A stretch of DNA of 64,000 bases from Tubulanus polymorphus. Taxonomy: Eukaryota > Animalia > Nemertea. Positions within the stretch are counted from its first letter, which is position 1. Every line of letters starts with the position of its first letter. The stretch covers positions 12,945,807-13,009,806 of the forward strand of contig NC_134031.1 in the NCBI RefSeq assembly GCF_964204645.1, written 5' to 3'. Both the position numbers and the translations under genes were made by a program. Shown here piece after piece: positions 34,872 to 57,224 of this stretch. The notes beneath the pieces were generated by a model. It was given only the letters and a program-made list of their open reading frames with translations, was not told the origin of the DNA and made no database searches.

Positions 34872-36115
34872 ATGAGTGGGAGTTATATCAATCCTTCTAA
34901 GAATCATAGAATATCTAATGCTATTAAAGCAGAAAGATCACACCATATAATTACTCATAACCTTATAATATTAATCCCGATGAAACTTTATATGTTAGAA
35001 TCCCTCGACTAACACAAAATACTTTATACGTTCCAAATAGTATTTATTTATCAGCCGATATAAAAGTAACTGGTAATAATAATAATTATGTTGTTGATAA
35101 TGTTGGAAGGTATTTGATTAAAAAATTAACAATAAAGATCGGTCCAGAAACAGTTTTCTCATTAGATGATTATAATTTATTTATGCATTATAAAGATTTA
35201 TGGTTAACTAAAGAAAATAGAAATAATATGATATTTCAAGGAATCCAATCAGAAAACCAAAATAAATTAAGATCAGAAGCTAATAGCGCAATATTAACTA
35301 ATGCTGTAGATAAATTGATAAAAAGTATATATGGAAGCAAATATAAAATTCCATTAGACTTTGAATTGATAAATAACAATGCACCTTTATATAAATACGC
35401 AATTCAAGAAGACGTTATATTCGAAATAACATTTGCTCCTGTAAATGAAATTGTATTATCTAGCGTTAATAAAGATATGAGTTATAAATTATCGAATATA
35501 TGTTTAGAATATGACACAGTAACTGATGAAAATATTTCAAGTATAATTCAAACTAAATACAATCAAGGATTTTCATTATTATATGATTATATTGATAAAT
35601 TTAAAACTGTAACTATTAATGCAAATGATGAAATAATTAATGAGAATATTAACTTCCCAAGAAGATCTATTAAAGGTATATTAATATTTTTTACTATTGC
35701 AACATATACTAATGGTGCAATAAATGTTGATAATTATTATAATCCTGAAATAACAAAAGTAGAAATAACTATCGAAGGAATAGCAAATAAAATATTTTGT
35801 CAAGGAATGAGAATGATTGATCAATGGCCAGAAATTAGAAAACATTTTATGAATGAAAAAGTAAAATCATCTGAAAATTGTAATATTAATCAAATTGATT
35901 ATTATACCGGTAATAAATATGCATTATGGTTAGATTTTAGAACAACAGAGGATAATTCATTACATGGTTCTGGAAAAAAACTACAGAACATTAAAGATGG
36001 AATACAATTATTCATGACAAAAAATAAAGGAATCAAAAATTTTAAAATGCACATTTATATTATATCTGACGCGCAATTAAATATTGTAAATTCTCAATTA
36101 AATAGTGTTATGTAG
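34872..36115 (+). pseudogene. Major capsid protein (B), 5' frameshift
   Basis: Near-identical to 12719-13966; indel near 34965. Confidence 0.8.
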
Positions 36116-36150
36116 TAAAATTTTAACTTTGATAAAAATTTATATAATAA

Positions 36151-37017
36151 ATGGAAGGAGGTAAAGTATATAAACATATTCCATACATCGATACACATGA
36201 CAATAATGATGGTTTATATTATGTAATACCTTGTAATATAGCTTTGATATTTGATCCTATTTTCAAAATTTATAAAACTAAACTAATAGAAATCGATAAT
36301 AATAAAAGTGGTGTTGTTGATAATTTAAGTAATGTAATTGATAATAATGTAATACCTACTACATCTAATAATGTAATACCTACTACATCTAATAATGTAA
36401 TACCTTCTACATCTAATAATGTAATACTTTCTACATCTAATAATGTAATACCTTCTACATCTAATAATGAAATAATATTAAATGTTAGTGGAAATAGAAA
36501 TTATTGTGGATATTGTAAAAGTGAATTTTCAAACGCTACATCAAATTGGAATAAACATATGAATACAAGGGTACATATAAATAATGTTATAGAACGTGTT
36601 GGTTTAAAAGAATTTATAGAACACCCATTTAGATATGTTACAAAGTTTGTTTCAAATCAAAAAGTAAATGGTGAAAAAATATATGAAGGTTTATTATTAG
36701 TAACACCTAATAAAGATGAATTAGATCTAACCAATGCTAATGAAATATTTAAACCAAACACTGTAAATGAAATATTAGGAGCAAACACTAATAAAGATAA
36801 TAATGAAAATACAGGAAAGCGCATTGATAATAAAGATTCTATGAAACTTAAATCAGAAAATAAAGATATAGTTGAGATGACTAATAAGTATATCAATAAA
36901 CCAATTATTTATGAAGATACGGTAGAGCATTTGAATAAATTGTTAGGGTCTGATTATGAATTGGAGAGTGATGATGAAAGTGATTCAGAAAGTAATTATC
37001 TAACACTCAAAAAGTAA
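36151..37017 (+). CDS. Zn-finger protein with NNVIP(T/S)TS repeats
   Basis: Intact 288-aa ORF, homologue of 13999. Confidence 0.8.
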   Translation: MEGGKVYKHIPYIDTHDNNDGLYYVIPCNIALIFDPIFKIYKTKLIEIDNNKSGVVDNLSNVIDNNVIPTTSNNVIPTTSNNVIPSTSNNVILSTSNNVIPSTSNNEIILNVSGNRNYCGYCKSEFSNATSNWNKHMNTRVHINNVIERVGLKEFIEHPFRYVTKFVSNQKVNGEKIYEGLLLVTPNKDELDLTNANEIFKPNTVNEILGANTNKDNNENTGKRIDNKDSMKLKSENKDIVEMTNKYINKPIIYEDTVEHLNKLLGSDYELESDDESDSESNYLTLKK

Positions 37018-37019
37018 TA

Positions 37020-37372
37020 AAGGTTGAAAATTGTATAAAATAATAGTAAATAAAAAAGGGGGTTTTAAGTATTAAGGTATCTAATACGTATCTAATACGT
37101 ATCTAATACGTATTTAATACATATTATTTGAAAATACCTTAAATTATATTTCTTTTTTAAATTTATATTGAAACCTCAGTAATAATAAATAACCTTTATT
37201 ATTTTCAAACTTATTCATATATTAGTTGAAAAAATAAAAATAAATTGGTTGAAAATTGTATAAATAATATTTATTTTTAAAAAGGGGGTTTTAAGTATTT
37301 AAGGTATCTAATAGGGTATCAGGTATTAGGGTATCTAATTTGGTATCTAATAGGGTATCTAATACATAGGTA
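37020..37372 (+). repeat. Intergenic block with GTATCTAATA iterons
   Basis: Homologous to 14900-15212. Confidence 0.85.
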
Positions 37373-37530
37373 TATTTTAAACATATTTCAATATTTATAT
37401 TTGTATGAGTTAGATTTTTAAACATTAAAAGTGTTAGTAAAGTTTTATTGAAATAATTCATATATATTCATGAATAACATATAAATGAATAACTTCTAAA
37501 ATCAATTTAGTAAAAAAATATGTATAATAA

Positions 37531-38179
37531 ATGGAACCAGAACAACCACAAACTATCAATATTACAAATAACACTGGTGTCATAAACATATACTACAAGA
37601 AGTGTTCTAAATGTGAATTAGATAAATTAGCTTTAACAGAATTTAGTAAGCGTAAGATTAGCAAAGATGGTTTTCAATATTGCTGTAAAACTTGTTTTAA
37701 ACTATATACCAAACAATATCGAGAAGATAATATAGAACATTATAATTATGGCAGAATATGTGAGAGAAAGATATAAAACAGATCTTAATTTTAGATTGAA
37801 ACAATGCTTAAGGACTAGATTAACACAATCATTCAACAAAGAAACGCATTCAGAAACATTATCTAATTTGTTGGGTTGTTCAGATGAATTTCTCAAATCA
37901 TGGATTATATTTCAATTCGATGATAAAATGAATATAGATAATTATGGTGAATACTTTCATATTGATCATGTGTTGCCGATTTCTAAATTTGACATGAATG
38001 ATGAATACAATAAGAAGCTAATATGGAGCTGGAAAAATTTAAGGCCTTTAGAAAAGAAGGAAAACATAATTAAATCTAATAAACTAGATATACAGTTATA
38101 TTTAGATCAACTGGATAAAGCAAAGACATTTGTTGAATTATGGAACTCAACACATAATGAAAAATACGTTGAATGTTAA
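37531..38179 (+). pseudogene. HNH endonuclease of the type common in large DNA viruses, one frameshift
   Basis: KKCSKC..CCKTC N-terminus; LLGCS..DNYGEYFHIDHVLP..NLRPL..ENIIKSNK. Confidence 0.8.
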
Positions 38180-39323
38180 ACGCTTAGAAAACCGGTTACT
38201 CTCGATCTATGTCAAACCGCCTGTATGTAATTGTATTAGGTTGTTTACAAAAGCATCTGTCGCACGTTATATTCATTGAATAGGGTGTACCTCATTTGAA
38301 TATTGATCGAATGTTCTATTTCAGTTGAAAAGGATTAATCAATAACATTACAAAGGAACATCTGTTGCACAGACAGTGTTTAGCTAGTGAATAACTGGCA
38401 GTTATAAACGCGCAGCACATAAGCATAGGAACGTATAGGATATTCTCTCTATAAACACAATTTTAGGAGTTTACAGTTATAAATGTAAGTACTGTTTTTG
38501 TTGTTATTAATGCGTTGGGAAACGTTAAACATGTAAAACTTATCCTGGTAAGATGCGCCACAAATGGTTATGTTTAAGTGTTGTAATTAATATTTTACAA
38601 CTACAACTTCAAGTTAGTTTTATTCTACGTTAGATATTTATCTTCTAGATAACAAAATGAAGACCATTGAATCAAGAAAGTGAAGATAGGAAGATGTGGA
38701 ATCAGAAATTATGGATATTTCAACTCATGAGACTGTAGCAGTTTAGCCATACTGTATAGGCTTTCAATGCATTACGTTTGCCGGAATTTCAATTGTGTCA
38801 TTCAGCTGTTGTTAATGTCACACACAGTGACAGATGTTGTATTATACTTTATTGATTCCTGCATTCCACGCATACCTTACCGCTCCTCTCAGGAGCGGCT
38901 TGGAATGTGGAAATCGATAATGATTGTAGAATGAAATATATGTGTTTATGAAATAGTATTTCCACCAGTCGTTTATTTGAATTTATTTTCAGTTTAAGGA
39001 TTTATTATCAAGAATCGGAAATGACTTATCTGGACAGTTATAATTACTGCTCCTAATAGATAGACAATAGTAGTGAGATAATCTAAATCCTAATTTAAAT
39101 AAAAAGTATTTAAAAAACAATAACTTCAACTAGCTAGTGAATTCTATTATATTTTTAATATTTTCTTTTCAAAAGAGAATACTTTATATTTTGAATAGAT
39201 TCAAATAGAAATTCTTTAAATTCAAATAGCTAGTATCAGTAGTCAATACTAGAATTCTTTAACTTTAACTATCTAGTATCAGAATACTTATAATATTTTT
39301 CTTATTAAATTTCTCTTATATAA

Positions 39324-39926
39324 ATGTCAAAGAAATCTAATAAGAATAGTATTGATATTGAAAAGACATTAGATGATTTGGGTATAAGTGATAATAAAGA
39401 TACAGTTGTTTCTAATTCTATTCAAGTTAATAACAATATTGATTATGACTACTATTTATATTGTAAGCATCATCTTCAATTATTAATTGCTGGCGGGAAA
39501 TCTAAGGATTTCTTGGGAAAAATTTTAACTTATCAAGAACTAGATGCTATGAAACCCGATAAAGTAATAAAATATTTTAAGATTTATGAAGAAGCTAGAT
39601 TAGCTAGAATAAATGATTCTATTTCAGATGGTATTGTCAAATGTTATTCTAAGTTATGTAACCAGTTAATACCAATTGATGATGAAAATAAATTATATAG
39701 TGATTTGAAAAATGACTATTTAGTTATGATTGAATTACAAAAATGGGTTGGTTATGCTTCATTTCAATTAGGATCGGTTATGACATTAATTTCTACTGGC
39801 GTCATTACATTTTCGAATATCAAACCTATGGAATATAAATCAGGTAAGAACGAAACAGATGTACTACAACCAAACCGTGAAACAGAAAATGAATCAGAAC
39901 AAAAATTAACTAAAATAAATGAGTGA
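39324..39926 (+). CDS. Hypothetical 200-aa protein
   Basis: Homologue of 57503-58108 (LYSDLKNDYLVM). Confidence 0.8.
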   Translation: MSKKSNKNSIDIEKTLDDLGISDNKDTVVSNSIQVNNNIDYDYYLYCKHHLQLLIAGGKSKDFLGKILTYQELDAMKPDKVIKYFKIYEEARLARINDSISDGIVKCYSKLCNQLIPIDDENKLYSDLKNDYLVMIELQKWVGYASFQLGSVMTLISTGVITFSNIKPMEYKSGKNETDVLQPNRETENESEQKLTKINE

Positions 39927-40287
39927 TAGCGTTAAGAAAAAGGCTAGATCCGAGAAACAAATTAAATGGGCAAGAGAATTAGGTAAAAGATCTTCAGAAT
40001 TAAAAAAAGCTAAGAAAAAGAAATTAACAGATATAAATGAATCACAGACTTTATCTGATATTGATTCAAATAATAATCCATCTAATTCTTCTAATGCTGG
40101 AAGTAATTATAAATTATATATTACAATTGGATTAGTAACAGTTATTATATTATCCGGTGTAATATATAAATCAAAATTCAAATCTGATGATAAAGATGAT
40201 TCCAATGACAATAAACCTATCATACCAGAAAATAAGTCAAATCCTAAAACCATTGAAAATAACCCAAGATTATTATTAATGGATTAA
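39919..40287 (+). CDS. Single-TM protein (122 aa)
   Basis: KQIKWARELG motif plus TM; homologue 58041-58409. Confidence 0.8.
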   Translation: MSDSVKKKARSEKQIKWARELGKRSSELKKAKKKKLTDINESQTLSDIDSNNNPSNSSNAGSNYKLYITIGLVTVIILSGVIYKSKFKSDDKDDSNDNKPIIPENKSNPKTIENNPRLLLMD

Positions 40288-40293
40288 AAGAAG

Positions 40294-41402
40294 ATGTAAA
40301 AAGAACAATATTTAAGAGATTTATATTATAACCCAGAAAGTGAAGTATCATATTCTAACGTTTCAGAATTATGGAATAAAATTAAATCTGATAATGAAAA
40401 TGGTGATGGTGCCGTATGGCACCCACATGGTGATTTAAAATATAGTGAATTGAAATCATGGTTACGAAATCAACCAACATATCAAATCCACAAGAAAATG
40501 GATAAAACTTATTTAACAAGAAAAGTTATGGTTTCATATATCGATCAACAATGGCAAGCAGATTTAATTGACATGAAGAACTTAGAGGAATACAACAAAG
40601 GATATTTCTGGATACTGGATGTTATAGACATATTCAGTAGATACGCATGGTCAATTCCAATCAAAAATAAAACTGGAATAGAAGTAACAAATGCTTTTAA
40701 ATCTATATTTAAAGAAGCTATTCCAGATAAGATACAATTTGATGAAGGTAAGGAATTCTATAACAAACATTTTTAAAAACTATTATCTGATAACGATGTA
40801 GAATATTTTTCAACACACTCAGATAAAAAAGCATCTATTATAGAAAGATTTAATAAAACATTGAAATCTAGAATGTGGAAATATTTTACTGTTAATGAAA
40901 CATATAAATATATCGATGTATTAGATGATTTAGTGAACGGTTATAATAATTCTAAACATAGTTCTATAAATATGAAACCTATACAAGCTAGAAAAGAAGA
41001 TAATTCGGAAATAGTTTGTAATAATTTATATGGAGCGTTTGTTACACGTGATTTCGGTGAACCTAAATTGAAATTGGACAACACGTAAGAATATCTAAAT
41101 ATAGAAAAACATTTTATAAAGGTTATACTCCAAATTTTACTGAAGAAATATTCAAGATTAAAAAGATAATATTAACTAAACCATTGTTTATAAACTAGAA
41201 GATCTAAAAGATGAAGAAATATTAGGTTATTTCTATGAACAAGAATTATCACTTGTACCAAATCCAGATAAAATAGAATACAAAATAGAAAAAGTATTGA
41301 AAACAAAAACTCTTAAAGGAAAAAAGTATTCTTTGGTGAAATATAAAGGATATGATGATAAATTTAATGAATGGATTTTATCTAGTAAAATTAAAAGAAT
41401 AA
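40294..41402 (+). pseudogene. Integrase with chromodomain (B), disrupted
   Basis: ATG TAA at start, several frameshifts; near-identical to A integrase; ends YKIEKVL..VKYKGYDDKFNEWI. Confidence 0.9.
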
Positions 41403-42014
41403 ATGAATAAAGATTTATTTATATTTGAACCGCATAATATGTTAGTTACTGGTGTAACAAACTGTGGTAAAACACATTTCATATTAGATTTGTTAGAAAC
41501 TATTTATAAGAATCATTTTGATAATATAATATTATTCTGCCCCACTTATGAAATGAATGAAACATGTAATAGAGATATAGTTAAGATGAAAAAGTTTATT
41601 ATATTAGATCCTAAAACAGTAAAAGAAAATTTAGATAATTGTATAAAAATAGCAATTGATACTTATAAAGGATCAAATACATTATTCATTATAGATGATT
41701 GCGCTAATTTACATGATTCAAAAGTTAGAGAAAGTGAGTTATGTTATCTAGCTTTCTCTGGGGGACATTTCGGGATAACAACATGGGTTTTAAATCAAAA
41801 ATATAATTCAATTGTTAAAGACTTTAGGGAGAATATAAGATTTCTAGTTTTATTCTACAATAAAGATAGAAAATCTATGCAACAATCATTGGGAGAAAAT
41901 CAAATTATACCTACTGAATTACATGATGAATATATGAATAAATTAAAGAATAATACAGGTTCAAAATTATTACTGAGACTACAATTTCCCTATGAAAATA
42001 AATTTATAAAATAA
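41403..42014 (+). CDS. Packaging ATPase (B)
   Basis: Walker A/B; conserved GRH changed to GGH. Confidence 0.9.
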   Translation: MNKDLFIFEPHNMLVTGVTNCGKTHFILDLLETIYKNHFDNIILFCPTYEMNETCNRDIVKMKKFIILDPKTVKENLDNCIKIAIDTYKGSNTLFIIDDCANLHDSKVRESELCYLAFSGGHFGITTWVLNQKYNSIVKDFRENIRFLVLFYNKDRKSMQQSLGENQIIPTELHDEYMNKLKNNTGSKLLLRLQFPYENKFIK

Positions 42015-42045
42015 CTATTTATATATTTATTCTATAAGAGCTTAC

Positions 42046-42513
42046 ACTTTTATATTGAATAATCTGTCAATTTAAATGTTATTCATGTATATGATTATTC
42101 TAAGAGTAATAGGGGTAATAGGCTTTCAGGTTAAAGGTTGAATGGTCGAGTTCATTAAAAACAAATATTAAAAGTAATTTAAAACTATAATATATTTTCA
42201 TAACCGTGTGTATTTCAGTTGAATAATAGAATAATTATTATTATTAAAATATATTTGATTATATGAATTTGTGTATTGTAAATAAATCAATTGGTCGCGG
42301 AGCGGAGCGGTAGCGAAGTGGAGCGACCAATTGATTTAATACAATATGCTTTTTAAATTTAAATTATTGATATCTTAGAATAAATATTTAGTTATAATAT
42401 AAAATACACACGGTTATGAAAATATATTATAGTTTTAAATTACTTTTAATGTTTTGTTTTTAATGAGCTCGACCGTTCGACCTTTGATCTGAAAGCCTAT
42501 TACCCCTATTACT
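42046..42513 (-). repeat. Right TIR of B with palindrome 42105-42513
   Basis: Reverse complement of left TIR with few differences. Confidence 0.95.
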
Positions 42514-42680
42514 ACTGTGCCCGGCCTATTCGGTTACAGTAGCAGGTCGTTGTTACTGGTTCCCTACAACGTTGTTTGTGAAACGACGGCTGTACTAGCC
42601 TAAGTAATTGGAAAAGTGGGCTTTCAGATCAGAGTACGAGAGTACGAGACACCACTCATCACCACAAGTTTTCCTTATAA

Positions 42681-45600
42681 ATGGGGGAGAATGAACACCA
42701 ACCAGAAAACAGTAATGTCAATAAAAATCAATATTATTGTCAATATTGTAAAAAATACATCGATAAATCTAATAAATCTAAACATGAAAAATCTTCAAAT
42801 CATATAAAAAATGTTATAGATTTTGAAACTCCAGAAAATTCCAATGAAAGAAAAGAACGATTAGAAAATATGAATGTGGATGAAATAAAATGTGAAGTTT
42901 GTAATGAATTTATAGTAAAAAGGAATTATAATAGACATCTCGAATCACAAAAACACCATCAAAATTTGAGTAATAATGTTTTAGGAAAAGATTATTTTGA
43001 CGATAAACCTCAAAAAGTAAAAAAAACCAACTTCAAAAACTAAATCCATTTCAAATAAACCTTACATGGAAAATGTTAGAAATTATATTGATTCACTAGA
43101 AAAGATACAATTGAAATTTTAGAAACATTACATAGTAAAATTGGTCCTGCATAAATTTAATGAAATAATAGAAAAAATACTAGATTTGATAACAGATGTT
43201 GAATATCCAAAAATTAGTATCTCTGGGAAAGTAAGTTTTATAAAGTCAGAAGAAAAAATGGATTATAATATTCAAACACTCTCTGAAGAAATAATTTCAA
43301 AAACACAAATAAAAGAGAAGTTAGAAAAAATATTAAATGAATTTAAACGTCATATTGAAGAAAGATATTTTGAGGGTTCTGGCTTAACATTGGATGAAAT
43401 TATATATTTAGATTTAAATGTTTATAATACAAAAAGAAATAAAACATCAAAAAGTAATAAAATGTTTAAAAATGATTCAAACTTTACAACAGAAAAGGAT
43501 ATTAAAGCATCATCTTATATTAAATTACCATTTATAACAAAAGCAGTAATAAATATTCAAAATGAAGACAACAAATGTTTTCTGTGGGCAATTATTAGTT
43601 GCTTACATCCATCACAGGAAAATGTTTGTAGAATAACAGATTATCGGAAATATGAAACATTATATAAAATTGATCAATATCCAGTAACTATAAAAATGAT
43701 TCCTAAAATAGAAAAAGTTAATAATTTAAAAATAAATGTATTTGAATTAATGCAATTACCAAAGACAAAAGGTGAAAATATTAAAGATTATACATTGGAA
43801 GCTTTATATTTAACAGAATATTATGATGATGAAAATGCTATAGATTTGTTATATTACAAAAAAGATGAAAATGAACATTATATGTGGTTAAAACAAATTG
43901 ATTTATTCTTTAGAACAGAAAGTGATCATCATCATAAAATTTATCTATGTAGAAAATGTTTATCTAAATTTATGACTGAGAATACATTACTAAAACATAA
44001 AGAATTATGTGATAATAAAGATTTTTGTAAATTAATAATGCCAACAGAAAAAGATTATAAATTGAAATTTACTAATCATAAATTTAAAAATATTGTTCCA
44101 TTTGTAATTTATGGGGATTTTGAATCGTTGAATAAAGAATTAACTAATCAAGATAGAAAAGAAATATATAACAAAAAGCAATTATTAAAATCAATGGATA
44201 AAGGAAATGAATTAAATGAAGACACAATACAAGACCCACCAATTATAAATACAATTAAAAAAGTTCATCAAAGAGCTGCTGCTTATGGAATTTATATAAA
44301 ATCAAATTATCCCGAATTATATGAAAGTCAATATATTTCTTTTAGAGGTGAAAATGTAGTTAATGATTTTTGTGATAAAATGATTGAATTAGAAAGTGAT
44401 TTTGCAAAATTATTAAACAAAAATAAAAGAATAGTTATGACAAAAGAAGATGAAATTGATTTTAATTATGCAACTCATTGTTGTTACTGTGAAAAACGTT
44501 TTTATTCATTTGATAAAAAAGTTAGAGATCATAATCATTTGAATGGAAAGTTTAGAGGCGCTGCACATGAGAATTGTAATTTGCAAGCAAAGAAAATCAA
44601 TTTTGTCCCCATTATATTTCACAATTTATCGGGGTATGACGCGCATTTATTTATCAAACAGTTATGCTATAAAATAGAAGAAATTAATAATGAAATAGAA
44701 AGATTAAATTCAAATAGATCAAAAGATAAAATACCAACTTATAAATTAAAAATACTAGCTAAAACATCTGAAAATTATATTTCATTTCAATTTGGTTACA
44801 TTAGATTTTTAGATTCTTATAGATTTCTAGCAAGTTCATTAGATAATTTATCAAAAAGTTTAGTTGATAATGATTTTGTTATAACTCGATATTATTATCC
44901 AAATGACCAAGATTTTAAATTATTGAGATATAAAGGTGCAATTCCTTATTCATTTTATAAAACACATGATGATTTTAATGTAACAGAATTATTAAAAGAT
45001 CAATTTTATGATAAATTAAAAGAGGAGTATGTGAAAGACGAAGTGTTTAATAGAACATTAAATATTTGGAACCATTTTAAGATGAAAAATCATGGTGAAT
45101 TAGTTGATTTATATTTAAAATCAGATGTTATGATATTGGCTGACATATTTGAAAAATTTAGAGAAGTTAATTTGAATCATTTTAATGTTGATCCTTGTTA
45201 TTGCTACTCTAGTCCTGGTTTAACCTGGCAATGTGGTTTAAAATATACAAATGTAGAATTAGATTTATTAAAAGAACCAGATATGGTTTTATTATTTGAA
45301 AAATCAATTAGAGGTGGAATTAGTGGTGTTATGGGAGATAGGTATTTTAAAGCAAATGATGAATATAAATTATTATATATTGACGCCAATAATTTATATG
45401 GTTGGGCAATGATGCAACCTCAACCATATAAAAATTTTATATTAACAGAAGTTGAAAATGGTGATAAAACTGATTGGGAAAGCGCAATTGCGAGTTTAAA
45501 AGATGAAGCACCAATTGGTTATTTCTTTGTAGTTGATTTAGAATATCCTGAAAATATAAAGTTTAAAACAAGAAACTTACCTTATTGCCCAGAACATTTA

Positions 45601-47696
45601 ACTGTAGATGATAGTTATTTAAGTGAATACCAGAAGAAAATAAAACCGAAAGATCATGTTTTTACAGAAAAATTAATACTTACTCAAAATAATAAATACA
45701 ATTATATTGTTCATTATGGAATGTTAAAATTTTATCTAAAACAAGGAATGAAATTAAAGAAAGTACATAGATATATTGAATTTAATCAATCGAAGTGGTT
45801 AGAAAAATATATAGATTTCAATACTCAACAGAGAACCATATCAAAAACAGATTTTGAAAAAGATTTTTTCAAATTGATGAACAATAGTTTTTATGGAAAA
45901 ACATGTGAAAATATTAGAAATAGAAATGATATTGAATTAGTAAATAATTCTGAAAGATTAAGACATTTACAATCAAGTCCTAGACATTTAGGAAATAAAA
46001 GGTTTGAAGATTATTTAACCGCGGTAAAATTAAAAAGAACGTCCATGAAATTTAATAAACCAATATTTATAGGTTCAACTGTTTTAGAAATTTCAAAACT
46101 ATTGATGTATGAATTCTATTATAATGTTTTACAACCACTTTTTGGAGAAAAACATATAGAAATATTATATTTTGATTCTGTAACAGCTGACACCCCAATA
46201 TTATTAAAATGTAATAATAAAATATTGGTAAGAAGAATTTCAGAAATAATTCCAAAACAAAATGAATGTTATATTTCATATGGTGAAAAAGAACTAATAC
46301 AAATAAATGGTTTAATGGATGTTTGGACAAGAAATGGATGGAAAAAATTAAAGAATATTATTAGGCATAAAACAAATAAGAAAATCTATAGAGTTAGAAC
46401 TAAATTAGGATTTGTAGATGTTACAGAAGATCATAGTTTAATTAAACGAAATGGTGATGAAATAAAACCAACTGATATAAAAATTGGAGATGAATTATTA
46501 CATAAAAGATTTTTCCAAAGAATGAATCATATGTCATTTGATGAAATAATTGATAATATTTATAATATAGAACCCGAAACATTGGAAGAAAAAGAATATT
46601 TTATCAAAGGATTTTTCATGGGTGATGGTTCAGCAGGTGTGTATAATTATGTTAGTGGAACTAAATATTGTTGGTATTTATGCAATCAAGACTTAAAATT
46701 ATTAGAAAGAATTAAGAAATTCTGTGAAGAAGTTTATCCAAATAAAACATTCAAAATCATAGATGTTATGAAATCATCGCAATGTTATAGAATACATGTG
46801 AATAATCCTAAAGATTTTGCTACAAAATATAATGATGAATTCTATATTAATGCAATAGTGAAAAGTAATACTTCAACAAAAGAAAAGATAGTTCCAGATT
46901 ATGTATTGAATGCAAAAAATAATTTAAGAAAGTGGTTCTTCATTGGATTCTATGCCGCAGATGGTTCAAAAAGGTTCCAAAACCGCAAAACAATATCCTT
47001 TGCTCAAAAAGGAAAAGTTGCTATATCAGGATTGAATATATTATGTAGTTCATTAGGATTTAATATGAATATAGAATTAATTAAATCTAAACCAAATTGT
47101 TTTAATTTAAGGCATGCAGAAAAAGAATTAACAGAAGAAGTTAAAGATTTATTTGAAATATATAACCCAACTGACTATGTTTATGATTTATCAACAGATG
47201 ATGGAACATTCAATTCTGGGTTCCCATTAATCCAAAAAATACTGACGCCTACATTCTAAAAATCAAGACAAATGACATAACAAAAGACTTAAAAACATTA
47301 AAACATTATTTTGATTTTAGCAATTATCCTAAAGATCATGAACTATTTAGCAATGATAATAAAAAGATTCCTGGTAAGTTTAAAGATGAATTAGGAGGTG
47401 ATGAAATGATTGAATTTGTTGGGATAAGAAGTAAAATGTATAGTTACAGAACAAAAGATCATGAAGCTAAAAAGTTAAAAGGAATAACAAAACATGTGGT
47501 TGATAAACATATAGAATTTCAAGATTATATAAAGTGTTTATATAAATCAATTGTAATGAAACACAAAATGAATTGTTTAAGATCAGAAGATCATGAGATG
47601 TACATTAATGAAGTTGAAAAAACTAGTTTAAATCCATTTGATGATAAAAGGCATATTTTAGATGATGGTATAAAAACATCACCTTATGGCCATTAA
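42681..47696 (+). pseudogene. polB: pPolB (C) containing an intein; frameshifts at 5' end and at intein C-terminus
   Basis: ORFs 42681-43043, 43141-47259, 47406-47696; same motifs as A and B but divergent. Confidence 0.93.
46177..47240 (+). mobile_element. Intein with LAGLIDADG homing endonuclease (~355 aa)
   Basis: Insert between YFD and TD; block A SVTADTPI, block B VDVTEDHSL, IKGFFMGDG and FIGFYAADG, block F YVYDLST, end IQKN/T if one A is restored. Confidence 0.93.
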
Positions 47697-48994
47697 AACA
47701 TAAAATCAATATCATCATACTCGAAATCACTATTGGCTTCTTCATTTTCATTTAATTGTTCAGGTTCTTCTTCCATTCCATTTTTCTCATTTAAATAAAG
47801 TTCTATCTTGTTCCACATTTCATCTCGCTCTCTTTGTTTCTTTTTGTTTGTTAATTCATCAAATGGAATTATAATATCTAGGTTTAAATAATTTACAATC
47901 TTATTTAAAAAGAATTCATAATTTATTGAATCTGTTATTCTATTTTCCAAATGATACATTAATATTTGTTTGAATATTTTTTTTATATTTTTCATATCTT
48001 CTTCTGTTAATTTAGGTTTTTCATAATAATCATTAAATAATAAATATAAATACATTTTCTTTTCTTTTGTGTTAAATGTTGATGGAATAATTGTTTTTAT
48101 AATATCTTTTTTAGTTATTTCACCATTTTCATTTTCTATTATTTTCATTTTTTCAAACCATTGCATATATTCTGGTGTATGATCTTCTATAGAAAATATT
48201 TTAAAAATTTCATCAAGATAATTTAATTTTGGATCTATGAGAAAATCTCTAGTTTTTTCTTCACCTAATAAATTCTTTTGCCATCCACATTCATTACAAA
48301 ATATCACAGGACCTTCTTGTCTTAAGTACTCATAAATACATTGTGGGCATTTTTTTCTATCATAGCTTGGTAATAGATCTTCATTAAGCTCTTGGTATTT
48401 TCTTACGTTTTCTTTATGTTTTATTGTTCTATTATGTAGATTTGAATTACTTGTTGTAATAATCAATTTACAATATTTACAATAATATGTTTTTCTTGTT
48501 AATTCATTATATTGTTTTTCTAACTTTTCAACTGTTTCTTCATTATCTGGTAACGTTTTCTCATATTTTATTTTTTCTAATAAATTATTTTTTCTTTCAT
48601 TAAATTCAGTTTCAAATTTATTAGAAATTTTATCTATATGTACTTTACGAAATTGATGATTCTCCCAATCTTCTATATTTTCAGGGTTATATTTTATTCG
48701 ACAAGGCTCACAGAAATGATCTTTTATATTATCCTTATCATAGAATAAGAAAGGTCTTTTCCAAATAACTTCAGGTTCAACTTCAGCAGAATTACTATCA
48801 ACATTAGCCGTTGCGCCATTAATTCTACACTTCTCTGAATGTTTTTTAACATAATTTCTTGAGAATAATTTATTACATTTTGGACAGTTTATTTTAGGGG
48901 GTTTATAATTTTCATCATGTTTTTTCATATGTCGAGCCATATTACTTTTTCTTAGAAGTTCACCACAAATTTCGCATGCTATCTTCTCATCCAT
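47693..48994 (-). CDS. Multi-Zn-finger protein with VLTF3 (poxvirus A2)-like C-terminal region
   Basis: C2H2-like fingers; CPQC..CNECG ribbon; INYEFFLNKIVNYL..ERDEMWNKI resembles the VLTF3 C-terminus as I recall it. Confidence 0.65.
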   Translation of the reverse strand: MDEKIACEICGELLRKSNMARHMKKHDENYKPPKINCPKCNKLFSRNYVKKHSEKCRINGATANVDSNSAEVEPEVIWKRPFLFYDKDNIKDHFCEPCRIKYNPENIEDWENHQFRKVHIDKISNKFETEFNERKNNLLEKIKYEKTLPDNEETVEKLEKQYNELTRKTYYCKYCKLIITTSNSNLHNRTIKHKENVRKYQELNEDLLPSYDRKKCPQCIYEYLRQEGPVIFCNECGWQKNLLGEEKTRDFLIDPKLNYLDEIFKIFSIEDHTPEYMQWFEKMKIIENENGEITKKDIIKTIIPSTFNTKEKKMYLYLLFNDYYEKPKLTEEDMKNIKKIFKQILMYHLENRITDSINYEFFLNKIVNYLNLDIIIPFDELTNKKKQRERDEMWNKIELYLNEKNGMEEEPEQLNENEEANSDFEYDDIDFMF

Positions 48995-49062
48995 TTATTA
49001 AGGAAAAATTTTATTAAAATTAATTTTTAGTGATGAGCGGTAATTTTTTTATGTTATAAATA

Positions 49063-49821
49063 ATGGTAGAATTAAAAGAATACAGAATATTTATTGATTC
49101 TAGAAAACTTACAAATTATAAATCTCATAATTTATTAGTACAATTAGATAGAGAATTCAAGAATTGTGTAGATTTAAAATTAGTTAATATAAGTTTATGT
49201 AATTCTTTTTATAATATATCGGATAAAAGTCTAGAACATTTAATTTTTTCAATCTTTTACAAAAAAAGGAATAAATGGTTTTTTATATATTTAAAACCAG
49301 GATTATATAATTTAGATACATTAACACAAGAAATTAATAGAAAAGCTCGAGCTAAATTAGGAAGTGATTCCGGATTTAGTATTAGAATTTTAAAAAGTGC
49401 TAGTTCTAATAAAATAAAGATTAGGTTAGCTAATGACGAACAATTTAAATTTACAGTAAGAAAACCTTTAGGTAAACTGTTAGGAATTAACCCAGATATT
49501 GTTACAGCATACGCAGAAGGTAAATCAAACTTAATACCTTTTACACATTTTTATATTTATTGCAATTTAATTGACCCAACAAAAACATTTGAAGCAACTA
49601 AAGATACAATTTGTAATTCTGGTTTATTAAATATTTTACCATTAAAAAATGTCAAACAATTTGGAACTCAAATAAATTATAATTTAACTGAATGTGATTT
49701 CAAACCTTGTATTCCACATTTCAATAATTTTAAATTAGAAATAAGAAATCATAATGGTTATTTAATTGATTTGAATAACTTTCCTGTAATTTATGAATTA
49801 GTTATAAGATGTAAAGAGTAA
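49063..49821 (+). CDS. Minor capsid protein (penton), intact
   Basis: 252 aa; YIYCNLIDP, LEIRNHNGYLIDLNN. Confidence 0.78.
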   Translation: MVELKEYRIFIDSRKLTNYKSHNLLVQLDREFKNCVDLKLVNISLCNSFYNISDKSLEHLIFSIFYKKRNKWFFIYLKPGLYNLDTLTQEINRKARAKLGSDSGFSIRILKSASSNKIKIRLANDEQFKFTVRKPLGKLLGINPDIVTAYAEGKSNLIPFTHFYIYCNLIDPTKTFEATKDTICNSGLLNILPLKNVKQFGTQINYNLTECDFKPCIPHFNNFKLEIRNHNGYLIDLNNFPVIYELVIRCKE

Positions 49822-49837
49822 TTTTTCACCTATATAA

Positions 49838-50197
49838 ATGAATATAACTGTTGGACCGAGTATATGTTTTGGGTTTGATTTTAAACGTGAGAAAGAAATG
49901 AAATTTAACATTAATGATGTAATTACACATATCAAAAATATTGCATTTTCTAATGAAACAACATTTGAGTATGAAACAACAATTGATAAAGAAACTTTAA
50001 ATGTAGAAAAGATTACTAATTTAATTAGAGAATCTTTAAGATTTTATGAATTAGATGAAGATTTTATCATCGATGATATCAAAAACATATTAACCGAAAT
50101 ATATGATAATCATAAAACTAGTAATGAAATAAATGTTGAATTAATAATCACTAAGATAACTAAATATTTTGATGATAGTAATTTTTTTGATAAATAA
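49838..50197 (+). CDS. Hypothetical acidic protein
   Basis: Homologue of 8149. Confidence 0.75.
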   Translation: MNITVGPSICFGFDFKREKEMKFNINDVITHIKNIAFSNETTFEYETTIDKETLNVEKITNLIRESLRFYELDEDFIIDDIKNILTEIYDNHKTSNEINVELIITKITKYFDDSNFFDK

Positions 50198-50419
50198 ATG
50201 AGTGATAATAAGTGGATAATAACTGGATTATATAATGGCGCATTACTATCAGTTGGAACGGTTGGTTATTCAATGGTATTAAAAAAAGTATTCAAAATGG
50301 GAAGTGTTAATGTTGATAGATTTGATATCAATGATATTTTAAAGTTAACATTAGCAGTTACTTTATCTAATTTAACTATTGATTATTTGGAAAAACAAAA
50401 ATATATTCCTCCCATATAA
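50198..50419 (+). CDS. Small hydrophobic protein
   Basis: Homologue of 8506. Confidence 0.8.
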   Translation: MSDNKWIITGLYNGALLSVGTVGYSMVLKKVFKMGSVNVDRFDINDILKLTLAVTLSNLTIDYLEKQKYIPPI

Positions 50420-50443
50420 ATGCATAATTTTTTTGCTAAATAA

Positions 50444-50866
50444 ATGGCTTCTGCAATTATAACTATTATAGGATCGGCAATTGTTAACGCTTTAGCATTT
50501 ACTGGTGGTGGTTATTTATTTAAACATATTGATAAAAATAGTTCATTAGGAGAACAAAGAAGACATAACTTAGCGTTAGAGAAATACAATAAAGCTGCAG
50601 AAGAATATAGAGAAAAGAGACAAAACTATATGGATTACATCAATAAAGAATTATATGATCAGAAGATATCACACAGAGATTTTCAATCAGTTGATGATGC
50701 AATGAGTTTATATAACGCAGTAACAAATAAAGAAAAATTACATCTATACAAACCTAAATTATCAGATTATTATACCCCAAGTAAAGAACAACAGAAATAT
50801 GAAATAATATGGATTTTAGGTGGAACTGTTATTGTTATATTTGTTGCTTATAAATTTACTAATTAG
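50444..50866 (+). CDS. 140-aa membrane protein
   Basis: Homologue of 8752. Confidence 0.8.
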   Translation: MASAIITIIGSAIVNALAFTGGGYLFKHIDKNSSLGEQRRHNLALEKYNKAAEEYREKRQNYMDYINKELYDQKISHRDFQSVDDAMSLYNAVTNKEKLHLYKPKLSDYYTPSKEQQKYEIIWILGGTVIVIFVAYKFTN

Positions 50867-50886
50867 TAATTTTTTTTTCTAAATAA

Positions 50887-51321
50887 ATGGAAGATAAAGT
50901 TGATAGTATTGATATTATTCCTCATGATATAAATAAAACTAAATTAAAAACATATTTAGAAAAACAAATATTAGAATTTGAAAGTGACTTAAAGATAAAA
51001 AAGAAAAAATATTTAAAAAGTAAAATTATATATTATTTGATTATAAGTGGTTCGGTTACAATTAGTTCTGTGATAACATTTTTAGCAATATTCAGCCCAT
51101 TAACACCTTTAGCTATATCAATTGGTGTATTAGGATTAAGTTCAAGTGTTTTAACCGGTATAAGTTCAAAATTAAATATAAAAAGTAATAAAGAAAAAAT
51201 AAAATCTAATATAAAAGAAATTAATAAATTAAAGAATACACTAGATTATATAATAAGTTTAAATGGTCATATAACAGTTGAAGAACAAGATAAATTATTA
51301 AAAGAATTAATAAATTATTAA
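50887..51321 (+). CDS. Two-TM membrane protein
   Basis: Homologue of 9195. Confidence 0.8.
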   Translation: MEDKVDSIDIIPHDINKTKLKTYLEKQILEFESDLKIKKKKYLKSKIIYYLIISGSVTISSVITFLAIFSPLTPLAISIGVLGLSSSVLTGISSKLNIKSNKEKIKSNIKEINKLKNTLDYIISLNGHITVEEQDKLLKELINY

Positions 51322-51338
51322 TTTTTTTAATTATATAA

Positions 51339-52707
51339 ATGGTAGATAGTTTTCCAAAAGCTTTCCAATATAATAAATCAATTAAATATAATATTCCAAC
51401 AATAGATTTTAATAAAGATATTACATATAGAAATGAAGTTTTAGATTCATTAACTAATTTAGAAATTTATGTTACTGAAACTAATAATTTTAATGCAAAG
51501 ATGGAAAATATATTTCATGTATATTTGATTAATTTTAAAAAATTGAAAGATGAAAAACAATGGTTATTAAAATCTAATATGAAATTTTGCTGTTTATTGT
51601 GCAACAACAGGATGTGGAATTAGTTGGAATGATCATTTGAATAATTCTAAATATAAATTAATTCAAAGTTTATTTAGATTTCATACATACTTTCAAATCA
51701 GAATAATATTAAATGAATTAGAGTGCGCTTTACCAGGATCTAGGTATTTCAAAGAATTAGATAATAATATTAATTTATCTAAGTTTTATAAGATTTGCAA
51801 TGAATTTAATATAGATATAAATAATTCTGATTTTAGAACAAAAATTGGAACAATAAGATCACTTCCATGCCCTAGAAAGATTGCAGAATATTGTGCACTT
51901 CCCATACCATCTAATAGCTTTTATAATATCTATAATAATAAATTAGGTTATGGTAAAATAGAAACAAAGGATTTAGAAACATTAAATTTCAATAAATTAC
52001 CGAAATTTTATGATAATTTAAAACAAGAAAACAATAATGGTTGGGTTTATTTCATTTTAGAAAATAGTGAAGGTTTTACTAAATCAGGTATAGAAAGAAT
52101 AAATCAATCTATTAGAACTTATTTGATATGTATTCTAGGATCACAGGTTGAAACAAGATCCCCAATAATTGGAAATTTAAATACATCATTTGATACACAG
52201 AAACAATTCAAAGTATTATTTGAAGATTCAATTCATAATGATAAAAATAGATCGATTCCAGAAAACATTGTAAGATATCAAAATTATTTAGATAAATCAC
52301 ATATTAGATTAAATTATTGTATAGGCCCTAATCTATTAATTATTTCTGATGATTTAGTACTAAAGATGGGAAATATAATTGGTTATAATAATCTAATTAA
52401 AACTGCAACAATAAATAATTCATTTGGATTAAATGATATAAATAAAAAGATTATCACTGCTCCAAAATTAATGGAAGGTGAAAAAAATAAAAAACACATT
52501 CAATCAACTGAAACTAAAACTAATAATATTAAATTAAATAATGATTCTAAAATAAAAGATTACAATACATCAGAAAATATAAAAACTGATATTATTCAAC
52601 ATGATATAATTAAACTAAATGACGATAATAAATCCCATGAAAATACTAAATTAGCTATAACTTGTATAGGAATTGTAATCGGAGGAATATTATATTTTAA
52701 ATTCTAA
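51339..52707 (+). pseudogene. Conserved ~450-aa protein, 20-bp deletion frameshift
   Basis: Lacks GTATTGGCAGAAGCAATTAA present in A near 9892. Confidence 0.78.
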
Positions 52708-52723
52708 TTTTTTTATTATGTAA

Positions 52724-54157
52724 ATGGATGTAGAAGGTGGAGAAGATTATGAAATGGGAGAAATGGGAAATAATAATGAAGGATATATTGATGATGATTA
52801 TAATGATGCAGAAACTAATATTGATAATGATGATGAATCAGCATATAATTCTAATTTAACTACACCTCAATATATTGATAAAACACGTTCAAAGATAAGT
52901 ATTGAAAATGAAGTACCAGAAATAACAGAAAAAGAATACAATTATAATGAAATTATTCATGAATTTAAACCAATATTAAAAAGATCTGGTTTCAATATAA
53001 CAAATAAAGGTATGAATTATTTAGTAAAAGATTTAAAATATTTAAATGGTGATTATTATTGGAAATTGAAAGGCGACTATTATTTTAAGATTTCAAATCT
53101 TAAAAGTAGCGATAAAATAATAACACAATCAACTTTTAATTTATTTAAACCAGATAGAATTAAGAAAATCATTGATGATGTTATAACTGATGTTACACAA
53201 GAAGAAAGAGATTATAATATAAAAGAATTTAAACAAAGAAATGCTAATTTTTTTAAGATAATTAATGAAAATTTAAGACAAAAAAAAATTCCTAAAGAAG
53301 TTATTAATTCCAAAACTAGTAAACCTAATTCAAGCGAAGTTCAAACTGAAAAACTTTTACCAAATGGATTACTTGATGCAACAGATCAACAATTAGAAGA
53401 TTTAAATATATTTTCTGATAAAGCAATTAGAGAAATTACTAGTATAAGACTTGCATCTAATAAAATTGCGCATGATAAAAGTATAAGAGATTTTAAAATT
53501 AGAACTTTAGAAAAAGAATTAACTGATAAAGATAAAGAAATAGAACAATTAAAGTCTGATTTAGATCATCAAGTAATTGATGAAATAGAATATAAGCAAA
53601 AAGAATTACGTTTAGAAAAAGAAATAGATGATTTAAAATATAACAAAGAATTACAAAAAGAAGAAAGAGATACATTGTTAAAATCATATGATTATAATAT
53701 TAATAGATTAAAAGTTATTTTTAAAGATTTGTTGATTAAACCAAATTCTGAAATATCATTAAAAGACAGAATAAGATTATTATTTGAATTAGAAGGAATA
53801 ACAATTCTTTCAATTCTAACAGCTGTAACTATGTTATTTACAACAATTGGTTTAGCTATATCAAATGCTTTAAAATCTACTCCTACTCCCACTCCAAATA
53901 AACCAGATAAACCTCCAGGTAATAATTCTATACAAGATAAAGTTAAAGATGGTTTAAAGAAATTAGCAAAATATTTATGGGAACTATCTAAAAAATCTGC
54001 TGCAGCTTTACCAGGAGTTATTGCATCAATTGTTGGTTTTATATTGAAATCTGCTGGGAATATTCTTAACTTTGCTGCTGAACATATTATTTTATTTTTA
54101 ATAACTGTTGTAAGTGCTATTATTTTTGGTTTAGTAAACATTATCAAAAATAAATAA
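52724..54157 (+). CDS. Acidic/coiled-coil/C-terminal TM protein (477 aa), intact
   Basis: EGITILSILTA..AAALPGVIASIV hydrophobic C-terminus conserved in all three. Confidence 0.8.
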   Translation: MDVEGGEDYEMGEMGNNNEGYIDDDYNDAETNIDNDDESAYNSNLTTPQYIDKTRSKISIENEVPEITEKEYNYNEIIHEFKPILKRSGFNITNKGMNYLVKDLKYLNGDYYWKLKGDYYFKISNLKSSDKIITQSTFNLFKPDRIKKIIDDVITDVTQEERDYNIKEFKQRNANFFKIINENLRQKKIPKEVINSKTSKPNSSEVQTEKLLPNGLLDATDQQLEDLNIFSDKAIREITSIRLASNKIAHDKSIRDFKIRTLEKELTDKDKEIEQLKSDLDHQVIDEIEYKQKELRLEKEIDDLKYNKELQKEERDTLLKSYDYNINRLKVIFKDLLIKPNSEISLKDRIRLLFELEGITILSILTAVTMLFTTIGLAISNALKSTPTPTPNKPDKPPGNNSIQDKVKDGLKKLAKYLWELSKKSAAALPGVIASIVGFILKSAGNILNFAAEHIILFLITVVSAIIFGLVNIIKNK

Positions 54158-54177
54158 TTAATTTTTTTGTTTAATAA

Positions 54178-55451
54178 ATGAGTGGGAGTTATATAAGTCC
54201 TTCTAAGATTTCTAGAATATCTAATGCTATTAAAGCAGAAAGATCACATCATATAATTACTCATAACCCTTCAAATATTAATCCCGATGAAACTTTATAC
54301 GTTAGAATCCCTCGATTAACACAAAATACTTTTTATGTTCCAAATAGTATTTATTTATCGGCCGATATAAAAGTAATTGGTCATGATAATAATTATGTTG
54401 TTGATAATGTTGGAAGATATTTGATTAAAAAATTAACTATAAAGATTGGTCCGGAAACAGTTTTCTCATTAGATGATTATAATTTATTTATGCATTATAA
54501 AGATTTATGGTTAACTAAAGAAAATAGAAATAATATGATATTTCAAGGCATCCAATCGGAAAACCATAATAAATTAAGATCTGAAGCCAATAATGCAGTA
54601 GTAACTCGTGCCACAGATAATTTGATTAAAAAGATTTATGGAAGCAAATATAAAATTCCATTAGACTTTGAATTGATAAATAATAATGCACCTTTATATA
54701 AATACGCAATTCAAGAAGATATTATATTTGAGATAACATTTGCTCCTGTAAATGAAATTGTATTATCTAGCGTTGTTAAAGATATGGGTTATAAATTATC
54801 GTTAAAGATATGGGTTATAAATTATCGAATATATGTTTAGAATATAACACAGTAACTAATGAAAATATTGCTAGCACAATTCAAACTCAATACAATCAAG
54901 GATTTTCATTATTATATGATTATATTGATAAATTTAAAACTGTAACTATTAATGCAAATGATGAAATAATTAATGAGAATATTAACTTCCCAAGAAGATC
55001 TATTAAAGGTATATTAATATTTTTTACTATTGCAACATATTCTAATGGTGCAATAAATGTTGATAATTATTATAATCCTGAAATAACAAAAGTAGAAATA
55101 ACTATCGAAGGAATAGCGAATAAAATATTTTGCCAAGGAATGAGAATGATTGATCAATGGCCAGAAATTAGAAAACATTTTATGAATGAAAAAGTAAAAT
55201 CATTTGAAAATTGTAATATTAATCAAATTGATTATTGTACCGGTAATAAATATGCATTATGGTTAGATTTTAGAACAACAGAAGATAATTCATTACATGG
55301 TTCTGGAAAAAAACTACAAAACACTAAAGATGGAATACAATTATTCATGACAAAGAATAAAGGAATCAAAAATTTTAAAATGCACATTTATATTATATCT
55401 GACGCGCAATTAAATATTGTAAATTCACAATTAGATAGTATTCAATATTAG
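54178..55451 (+). pseudogene. Major capsid protein (C), frameshifted by 26-bp tandem duplication
   Basis: GTTAAAGATATGGGTTATAAATTATC repeated at 54775-54826. Confidence 0.85.
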
Positions 55452-55481
55452 AAATATAAAGTTAAAATTAAGGATATATAA

Positions 55482-56609
55482 ATGGGTGGTAAAAAAACTC
55501 CTAATACTAAAGAACAATATTTAAGAAATTTATATTACAACCCTGAGAGTTCGGTTGCTTATTCTTCTACTAAAAATATATGGCGTAAAGTAAAACAAGA
55601 TAAATTAGATAAGATAATCCCACAAAATTTAGTTAAATATAAAGATATAAATGAATTTATGTTAGAACAACCAACGTATACAACACATAAAAAAATTGTT
55701 AGAAAATATAAAACTCGTAAAACTATGGTAAGTTATGTAGATCAACAGTGGCAAGGAGATTTAATTGATATGAAAAATGTTAAGAAAGATAATGATGATT
55801 ATTGGTGGTTATTGAATATAATTGATATTTTTAGTCGTTATGTATGGAGCTTCCCACTTTATAGAAAAGATGCTGTACAAACATCAAATGTTTTAAGAAA
55901 ATTTCTTTCGGATGATAAACTAAATCCAGAAAAAATACAATTTGATGATGGAAAAGAGTTTGATAATTCACTTGTTCATGAACTCTTAGATAATCATAAT
56001 ATTAAATATTTTTCAACAAAATCAGATAAAAAAGCAGCAGTTGTTGAACGATTTAATAGAACATTAAGAACAAGAATGTGGAAATATTTTACAGCAAATA
56101 ATACTTTTAAATGGATTGATGTTTTACCAAAATTGATAGAAGGATATAATAATTCTTATCATTCTTCTATTGGAATGAAACCTATTGATGCTAGAAAATC
56201 TGAAAATGCTGAAATTGTTTGGAATAATTTATATGGAGCATTTCTTATAGATGATTTTGGTGAACCTAAATTTAAAGTTGGTCAAAATGTTAGAATTTCT
56301 AAGTATAAAAAGATATTTGATAAAGGATACGATCGAAATTTTACTAGAGAAATATATAAAATAAAAAAGGTAATAACAACAAAACCATATGTCTATAAAT
56401 TAGAAGATTTAGATGGTGAAGAAGTTGATGGCTACTTTTACGAAGAAGAATTAAGTTGAACTACTGAAAATCTAGAACAAGAATATAAAATTGAAAAAGT
56501 ATTAAAAACAAAAACTATTAAAAGAAAAAAATATTCTTTAGTAAAATGGGTTGGATGGCCAGATAAATTCAATGAATGGATATTATCAAGTAAAATTAAA
56601 AATATATAA
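55482..56609 (+). CDS. Integrase (C); chromodomain follows an in-frame TGA at 56457
   Basis: WQGDLIDM, QFDDGKEF, VERFNRTL; downstream YKIEKVL..VKWVGWPDKFNEWI in the same frame. Confidence 0.9.
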
Positions 56610-57218
56610 ATGAATAAGGAATTATTCATATTTGAGCCTCATAATATGTTAATTTCTGGTGTAACAAATTGTGGAAAAACTTATTTTATATTAAATTTAT
56701 TAGAAACTGTTTACAAAAACTATTTTGATAATATAGTATTATTTTGTCCAACATATGAATTTAATCAAACTTATGATAGAAATATTACTAGGAATAATAA
56801 ATTTATTATATTAGATCCTAAAACAGTAAAAGAAAATTTAGATAATTGTATTAAAATAGCAATTGATATTTATAAAGGATCAAATACATTATTTATCATA
56901 GATGATTGTGCAAATTTACATGATTCAAAAGTTAGAGAAAGTGAGTTATGCTATTTAGCTTTCTCTGGGAGACATTTTGGGATAACAACTTGGGTTTTAA
57001 ATCAAAAATATAATTCAATTGTTAAAGACTTTAGAGAAAACATTAGATTTCTAGTTTTATTCTACAATAAAGATAGAAAATCGATGAAAAATGCACTTGA
57101 GGAAAATGATATTATTCCACATGATTTACATAATGAATATATGGATAAGTTGAAAAATATTAAAAGATCAAAATTACTATTTAGATTACAACACCCATTT
57201 AAATATGAATTTATTTAA
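56610..57218 (+). CDS. Packaging ATPase (C)
   Basis: GVTNCGKT, LFIIDD, GRHFG. Confidence 0.92.
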   Translation: MNKELFIFEPHNMLISGVTNCGKTYFILNLLETVYKNYFDNIVLFCPTYEFNQTYDRNITRNNKFIILDPKTVKENLDNCIKIAIDIYKGSNTLFIIDDCANLHDSKVRESELCYLAFSGRHFGITTWVLNQKYNSIVKDFRENIRFLVLFYNKDRKSMKNALEENDIIPHDLHNEYMDKLKNIKRSKLLFRLQHPFKYEFI

Positions 57219-57224
57219 ATTCAA

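Follow-up and report, generated by a model that had tools for sequence, protein, structure and literature searches.

The window, i.e. the whole stretch of 64,000 nucleotides that we have analysed, contains three AT-rich Maverick/Polinton transposable elements, which are referred to here as Mavericks A, B and C. Their GC content is about 21-28%, and that of the surrounding flank is mostly 30-49%. Element C (42603-59794; like its parts and the empty insertion sites of A and B given below, on the forward strand) is 17.2 kb long, has ends of the form AG...CT and perfect 67-nt inverted arms (42603-42669 and 59728-59794), and is bounded by a 6-bp target-site duplication, AGCCTA, the left copy of which lies at 42597-42602 and the matching right copy at 59795-59800. 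We take a 6-bp target duplication and AG...CT ends to be marks of the Maverick family. In addition to a protein-primed family B DNA polymerase (pPolB), element C encodes an rve integrase (55482-56459; PF00665, 40.5 bits), an A32-like packaging ATPase (56610-57218; PF04665, 50 bits) and a major capsid protein, whose gene is read in two frames as two overlapping ORFs (54178-55451), the first piece giving a weak Capsid_N match of 18.1 bits, below the cut-off. As to the cysteine protease gene of Mavericks, 12 of the 16 ORFs of C that reach 120 aa were scanned, and none of these 12 matched a Pfam protease. Element C has the size, the terminal inverted repeats, the target duplication, the pPolB, the integrase, the ATPase and, with a match below the cut-off, the capsid of a Maverick/Polinton, for which a length of 15-20 kb and such a gene set are given in the available part of PMC5718144. 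The sequence-only reading from which this study started had placed the polymerase described below in an integrated Maverick, and the terminal repeats and target duplication bear this out. From the weak PF03175 score and the portion of PMC8502044 available to us, we would guess that the polymerase of C falls in the Beta adintovirus class; searches with the capsid and the polymerase reached no relative among named adintoviruses.

The polymerase gene of C is split within its catalytic motif C. The N-extein, a protein-primed PolB up to the YFD of this motif (43123-46176; PF03175, 63.3 bits), is directly followed by an insert of about 355 codons (46177-47240), and the C-extein, starting with the Thr-Asp of the motif, lies at 47241-47696 and shows 79% DNA identity to A and B. 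The empty site YFDTDS is uninterrupted in both Maverick A (6431-6448) and Maverick B (28710-28727), just as the earlier reading had it. The reading frame of the insert contains no stop, the two alternative frames having 34 and 51, and the intein motifs named in that reading were each found at their positions: the Ser1 nucleophile of block A (46177-46179), invariant in all 44 aligned inteins; the TxxH of block B, here TEDH at residue 83 (46423-46434), with T83 and H86 both invariant (44/44); a first LAGLIDADG helix, FFMGDGS at residue 146 (46612-46632), with Asp150 matched by Asp in 33 of the 44 rows; a second one, FYAADGS at residue 258 (46948-46968), with Asp262 matched in 39 of 44; and VYDL of block F at residue 335 (47179-47190), with Asp337 invariant (44/44). 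Both helix aspartates, as well as Lys237, are present in all four aligned pPolB relatives, and by analogy D150, D262 and K237 presumably have catalytic roles in the endonuclease. The terminal Asn followed by Thr, which had also been noted, are present as residues, but in copy C they are put out of frame by a break in the final codons of the insert (47230-47240), which is discussed below.

The same reading had suggested a search with Hint and LAGLIDADG profiles. The insert scored above the cut-off for TIGR01445 intein_Nterm (31.2 bits; cut-off 24.5) and for Pfam LAGLIDADG_3 (PF14528, 31 bits; cut-off 22.5), and below it for Pfam Intein_splicing (27.7 bits for copy C; cut-off 35.8). A sequence search of the PDB returned two matches in all, the best being PI-PkoII (E 4e-6). 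An AlphaFold model built on 44 sequences reached a pLDDT of 90.9 and a pTM of 0.91, and was used instead of a single-sequence fold with a pLDDT of 37.5. The ten best Foldseek matches of this model are intein endonucleases (PI-PkoII at E 3e-16, TliVMA, PhoVMA, PI-PfuI and PI-SceI among them), I-DmoI is also among its fold matches, and its Hint fold matches full as well as mini-inteins, e.g. 5o9i (E 1e-6, rmsd 2.5). The insert has what is expected, in sequence and predicted fold, of a self-splicing, DNA-cutting intein. Compared with the intein of the mimivirus PolB, it also shows 38% identity across 348 residues, and the site of that intein, YGD/TDS, is, as far as the available text of Ogata 2005 (PMC549080) goes, the pol-c allele; with YFD/TD here, the earlier assignment to the pol-c insertion site holds. 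Motifs, profiles, fold and mimivirus identity together mark the insert as a real LAGLIDADG intein of the pol-c allele family, predicted to be self-splicing in intact copies. As far as the partly available sources describe the mimivirus and archaeal pol-c inteins, it shares with them the motif C site, Ser1, a length of about 350 residues and two LAGLIDADG helices, and most of its relatives end in Lys-Asn as those do; the host protein differs, being the protein-primed PolB of a 17-kb integrating element here and an RNA-primed PolB there. Of the marks of a class-1 intein, copy C has Ser1, TxxH and the block-F Asp and lacks an in-frame terminal Asn followed by Ser, Thr or Cys, while an unbroken, in-frame junction of terminal Asn and following residue is found in its relatives P0003, P0004, P0005, P0008 and P0376.

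A search with the intein found 708 proteins. Among the best 120 of these, the highest identities belong to protein-primed polymerases that carry the intein at this very site, i.e. P0003 (64% identical to the C intein), P0004 (49%), P0008 (47%) and P0005 (46%), most of the others being RNA-primed PolBs at about 30-41%. A search with the polymerase added P0152 and P0212, which have the same intein start and end inside the intein, and a representative search added P0376, which is 74% identical over the second half of the intein and 85% identical in the C-extein and has an unbroken junction, as well as P0387, an intein fragment without extein. The sequence-only reading had proposed to look for other intein-bearing Maverick copies; a pol-c site intein is present in seven other protein-primed polymerase records (P0003, P0004, P0005, P0008, P0376, P0152 and P0212). 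Among the 120 polymerase relatives listed (118 of them scanned), 4 are filled, 96 are empty and 20 are unreadable at the site. Scans of viral contigs with P0003, P0008 and the capsid protein gave no relative. Scans that started from the intein or from the alignment of pPolB inteins brought up nothing but more distant inteins, with best full-length matches of at most 42% identity, and named phages gave two weak matches at 26-27%. In the Atlas, P0004 led to clusters of pPolB (0.83-0.84) that include records from arthropods and molluscs, which serves as a lead only, and a 140-aa ORF led to unnamed clusters.

In a tree of 120 inteins, which leaves out six near-duplicates and the short P0212 and does not contain P0376 and P0387, the seven pPolB rows form one clade (SH-aLRT 100), and its sister group consists of nine RNA-primed PolB inteins (SH-aLRT 95); a quick tree of 51 rows under a mixture model gave 100 for the pPolB clade and 88 for the sister grouping. 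Of the nine sister inteins, two match contigs labelled as giant-virus MAGs (99.7-100%) and one has a 100% match to a different viral contig; three score as phage-type polymerases (phrog_262, E 1e-155 to 1e-163). The trees favour a transfer from an RNA-primed PolB, with a giant virus as its likely donor. This much of the origin proposed in the sequence-only reading, i.e. the RNA-primed PolB of a large DNA virus, is favoured; against it stand the phage-type sisters and an AU test in which the arrangement with all RNA-primed inteins held together and the pPolB inteins outside was not rejected (p=0.27). The other part, which made the capture an event in the element of C itself, has to be given up: by the trees the capture is old and common to a whole clade of protein-primed polymerases. 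On the polymerase tree (47 of the 118 extracted rows) the intein is scattered, with 7 changes for 8 rows, which is not fewer than with shuffled labels (175 of 500 as low). The intein of P0008 is 44-48% identical to the other pPolB inteins while its N-extein barely aligns with theirs (best E 0.004), which suggests that the intein jumped horizontally from one polymerase class to another. Inside the polymerase class of the window, on the other hand, intein and extein identities are matched (64/59, 49/47 and 65/66%), a pattern that would agree with long co-descent and losses just as it would with homing.

Filled and empty copies were also found side by side. The stretch is present in 5 of the 11 sequencing runs listed, four of them under one species label. 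In one run under the same label, from another sample and study (X6), the intein is covered at a depth of 129-267 versus about 620-720 in the flanking polymerase; these figures vary with an 80% threshold and could contain a share of free viral DNA. The two main joints that skip the insert are formed by 47 and 39 reads of this run. From these depths and skipping reads it follows that filled and empty polymerase genes coexist in the species, roughly a third (a rough figure) being filled. The intein reads in X6 are diverse, and 16 of 27 variable intein sites are silent versus 33% expected for random transitions (p=0.005), these 27 being among the 40 best supported differences (527 more were seen) and hence a selected subset, with some sites near indels; the excess suggests purifying selection on the intein.

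The site itself was compared in the cluster of P0004, which has 136 members, 40 of which were read; the 15 listed lie on ENA contigs between 57 kb and 1 Mb in length, and among these 7 are filled, 6 are empty and 2 are too short. Filled and empty copies differ by 1.1-1.7% over 590 upstream residues, by 42% at residues -10 to -1 and 40% at +1 to +10, then by 16%, and by 4-5% further downstream. Over the twenty residues flanking the site the filled copies are identical, while differences of 24% and 11% separate the empty copies from one another, with three different site alleles among empty copies that are otherwise about 98% identical. Furthermore, the flank of the filled copies shows 10% mismatch (9 of 10 residues match) to that of the distant P0212, versus 50% for the empty copies, and the P0212 polymerase is elsewhere 24-32% different from the cluster. 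These mismatch counts come from pairs of near-identical, non-independent copies and give no direction of conversion; the patch at the site looks like gene conversion. In the window, a 72-nt tract adjoining the intein (46105-46176) is near-identical to the empty copy A, with 1 mismatch versus 22.6% gene-wide, one other of 44 60-nt bins being equally low, and no comparable near-identical tract was seen between C and copy A downstream of the intein. This tract is a possible co-conversion tract.

The reading that we prefer, and hold to be probable, is that the intein persists in a Maverick lineage by self-splicing and by homing among copies in the same, probably animal, genome. Intact copies would be translated into a precursor of about 1,500-1,700 residues, in which Ser1, TxxH, the block-F Asp, the terminal Asn and the +1 Thr would perform class-1 splicing and thereby restore the YxDTD active site. 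Class-1 splicing is established intein chemistry, and Thr and Cys are both able to act as the +1 nucleophile. Once freed, the endonuclease would cut empty sites, whether the copies that bear them are integrated or replicating, and a filled copy used as repair template would pass on the intein together with a short flank. Because the element is multicopy, donors and targets would be supplied in one nucleus and no mating would be needed, and empty copies would be selected for altered sites. A single, ancient transfer from the RNA-primed PolB of a virus would have brought the intein into a pPolB, and later it would have jumped to a second, distant pPolB class. That it is an active homing intein in animal chromosomes, which spreads among copies, disables or converts empty subfamilies and drives change of the catalytic motif, is a larger claim that we put forward tentatively, at slightly less than even chance.

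The matched intein and extein divergence in the polymerase class of the window would be equally expected if the intein had been gained once and then inherited vertically with many losses, homing having ceased and the patch at the site being due to empty alleles from other subfamilies that overwrote filled ones; the change counts on the tree cannot separate gain from loss, and the small share of filled sites among the listed polymerase relatives agrees with such a history. However, unused homing endonucleases usually decay, and here both catalytic Asp residues and Lys237 are kept in all four aligned pPolB relatives, where decay would be expected had homing ceased. The flank common to the filled P0004 copies and the distant P0212 also argues against such a history, as does the jump to P0008. 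We consider this history unlikely, and homing among copies remains the preferred reading.

Homing among copies of an animal genome also depends on the host, which we have approached through the flank. It contains pieces of a Gypsy/Ty3 retrotransposon (60057-62007, profile match, strand not assigned), and among 100 relatives of the flanking Gypsy fragment, 13 bear an organism name, i.e. 10 animals (sea cucumber, sea urchin, five fishes, two crabs and a fluke), 2 bacterial MAGs and 1 alga, the alga scoring weakest of the 13. The host is, to judge from these relatives, very probably an animal. It could instead be a protist, a fungus or a symbiont, in which case the intein would be real and would only extend the known cases of intein-bearing viral polymerases in the genomes of microbial eukaryotes: no host gene was found in the window, transposon relatives are weak taxon markers, and, according to the accessible part of PMC10710043, two green algae and a labyrinthulomycete have viral-like polymerases with inteins on their nuclear scaffolds. 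Against a non-animal host stand the named Gypsy relatives, which are mostly animals (10/13), and the gene set of C, which resembles that of adintoviruses by gene content; in the part of PMC8502044 available, adintovirus virion proteins are reported as restricted to animals. A non-animal host is in our view quite improbable, and the animal nuclear setting assumed in the sequence-only reading fits the Gypsy relatives, although it is inferred rather than identified. Near-identical small pieces of the stretch, one of them inside the intein, also occur in a metagenome of marine origin (X5), which hints weakly at the habitat.

As regards the break at the end of the intein, the polymerase ORF 43123-47259 ends at a stop, the terminal Asn, the Thr-Asp and the C-extein lie in the ORF 47202-47696, and the 1064 bases of 46177-47240 make no whole number of codons, so that copy C as assembled cannot yield a spliced polymerase. 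C is a decaying Maverick copy, since its capsid gene and probably also the 5' end of its polymerase gene are broken too, the latter apparently near 43050-43120, where 410 of 612 X6 reads differ in length. At the intein break, the length differs from the window in 26 of 99 and 16 of 138 X6 raw reads (two placements), and because only some reads differ there, the break is not common to all copies. The break falls in a homopolymer run, and in such runs both long-read errors and slippage are common; this, together with the length difference in only part of the reads, would also be consistent with an assembly error, C being intact at this point, or with a programmed ribosomal frameshift that meters polymerase output. 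We regard either as rather improbable: the other broken genes of C speak against an assembly error at the intein end, the window sequence departs from about 90% of the X6 reads at several single sites, as expected of an aged copy, and five relatives read through the junction in one frame, so that no programmed shift is needed. Two further candidates were ruled out, namely a spliceosomal or group I intron, by the open frame with protein-splicing motifs and by insert-skipping reads that come from a DNA run, and chance or misassembly of the insert, by its coverage in all four runs examined and by relatives at the same site. An Rfam scan gave no match.

A full-text search of the literature, with Repbase and most subscription papers outside its scope, brought up no description of a Hint-domain intein in a protein-primed polymerase, be it of a Polinton/Maverick or not, or in a chromosome of an animal; an intein of this kind in Mavericks or animal chromosomes is apparently not yet described. 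The allele family of the intein is a known one; its carrier protein class and its genomic setting appear new. In the survey of PMC5784728, as far as its text was available, the organisms given with nuclear inteins are fungi, amoebozoa, choanoflagellates, an apusozoan and a green alga; animals do not appear among them. A close likeness is found in the available main text of PMC10710043, where a viral polymerase likewise carries an intein into a eukaryotic chromosome in Klebsormidium, Tetrabaena and Hondaea, and where inteins spread inside one genome in Anaeramoeba, which is comparable with the spread among Mavericks proposed here. However, these hosts are not animals, that main text has no occurrence of Polinton or Maverick, and unlike in those cases the carrier here is a transposable element present in many copies, some filled and others empty. 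Insertions into Maverick polymerases are known in the form of HNH and VSR nuclease inserts in the pPolB2 of Polintons (Jeong 2023, 10.1101/2023.08.22.554363), and nuclease inserts in pPolB have been interpreted as possible intein invasions (Krupovic 2024, PMC11071308, as far as available). For the inserts of Jeong 2023, the text at hand reports no splicing domain and contains no occurrence of intein or LAGLIDADG, whereas the insert of C splits the catalytic motif and includes a Hint domain. When a homing endonuclease sits in an essential viral gene, related co-resident viruses that lack it could also be damaged, in the manner of gp210, the intron endonuclease of phage PhiPA3, for which interference competition was tested according to the available part of PMC11620839; that system is a phage intron, while the Maverick case is a eukaryotic intein for which interference is a hypothesis only. 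If the host is an animal, Mavericks would be a route for inteins into animal germ lines. With filled and empty transposon copies in one genome, the homing cycle of invasion, resistant sites, decay and loss could be read from a single assembly.

Several other observations concern the relatives. The residue after the first Asp of the empty sites is Thr in 56 of 96 and Cys in 40 of 96; the latter, which read YxDCD (P0139-P0256), possibly represent escape from the putative endonuclease, and most of these rows may stem from one assembly. Related inteins, at 30-32% identity, are present in the gyrase/topoisomerase II proteins P0104 and P0009, so that the intein family also occurs at non-allelic sites. 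P0146, a Maverick-type polymerase 58% identical to that of the window, is labelled Sulfurimonas in UniRef and is probably eukaryotic DNA in a MAG.

As for the elements themselves, the three Mavericks lie inside 60 kb, and B (24626-42513, target duplication ACTGTG, strand not assigned) and C are separated by 89 bases, each with its own 6-bp target duplication, which makes an insertion hotspot possible. C is a mosaic, its structural gene block being 85-92% identical to A/B and its polymerase and integrase/ATPase only 74-79%, which suggests module exchange between Maverick subfamilies. In A, the block of integrase and ATPase (15205-16940) is inverted relative to B and C, and the right end of A was not found by the end motif. 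The polymerase of C has a weak endonuclease-VII/HNH match (44449-44586; P0001 residues 443-488; 16.6 bits, below the cut-off), which resembles the insert described for nematode and oomycete pPolB2. In B, the ORF 37736-38179 gave no Pfam match and carries HIDH...N, which we take to resemble a free-standing HNH endonuclease. The ORFs 32448-33254 and 40300-40776 of the same element, otherwise unrelated, both contain the word GAVWHPHGD, which suggests a small mobile insertion. Finally, inside the long terminal repeats of B (24625-25024 and 42105-42513) there is an inverted repeat, which might fold into a hairpin.
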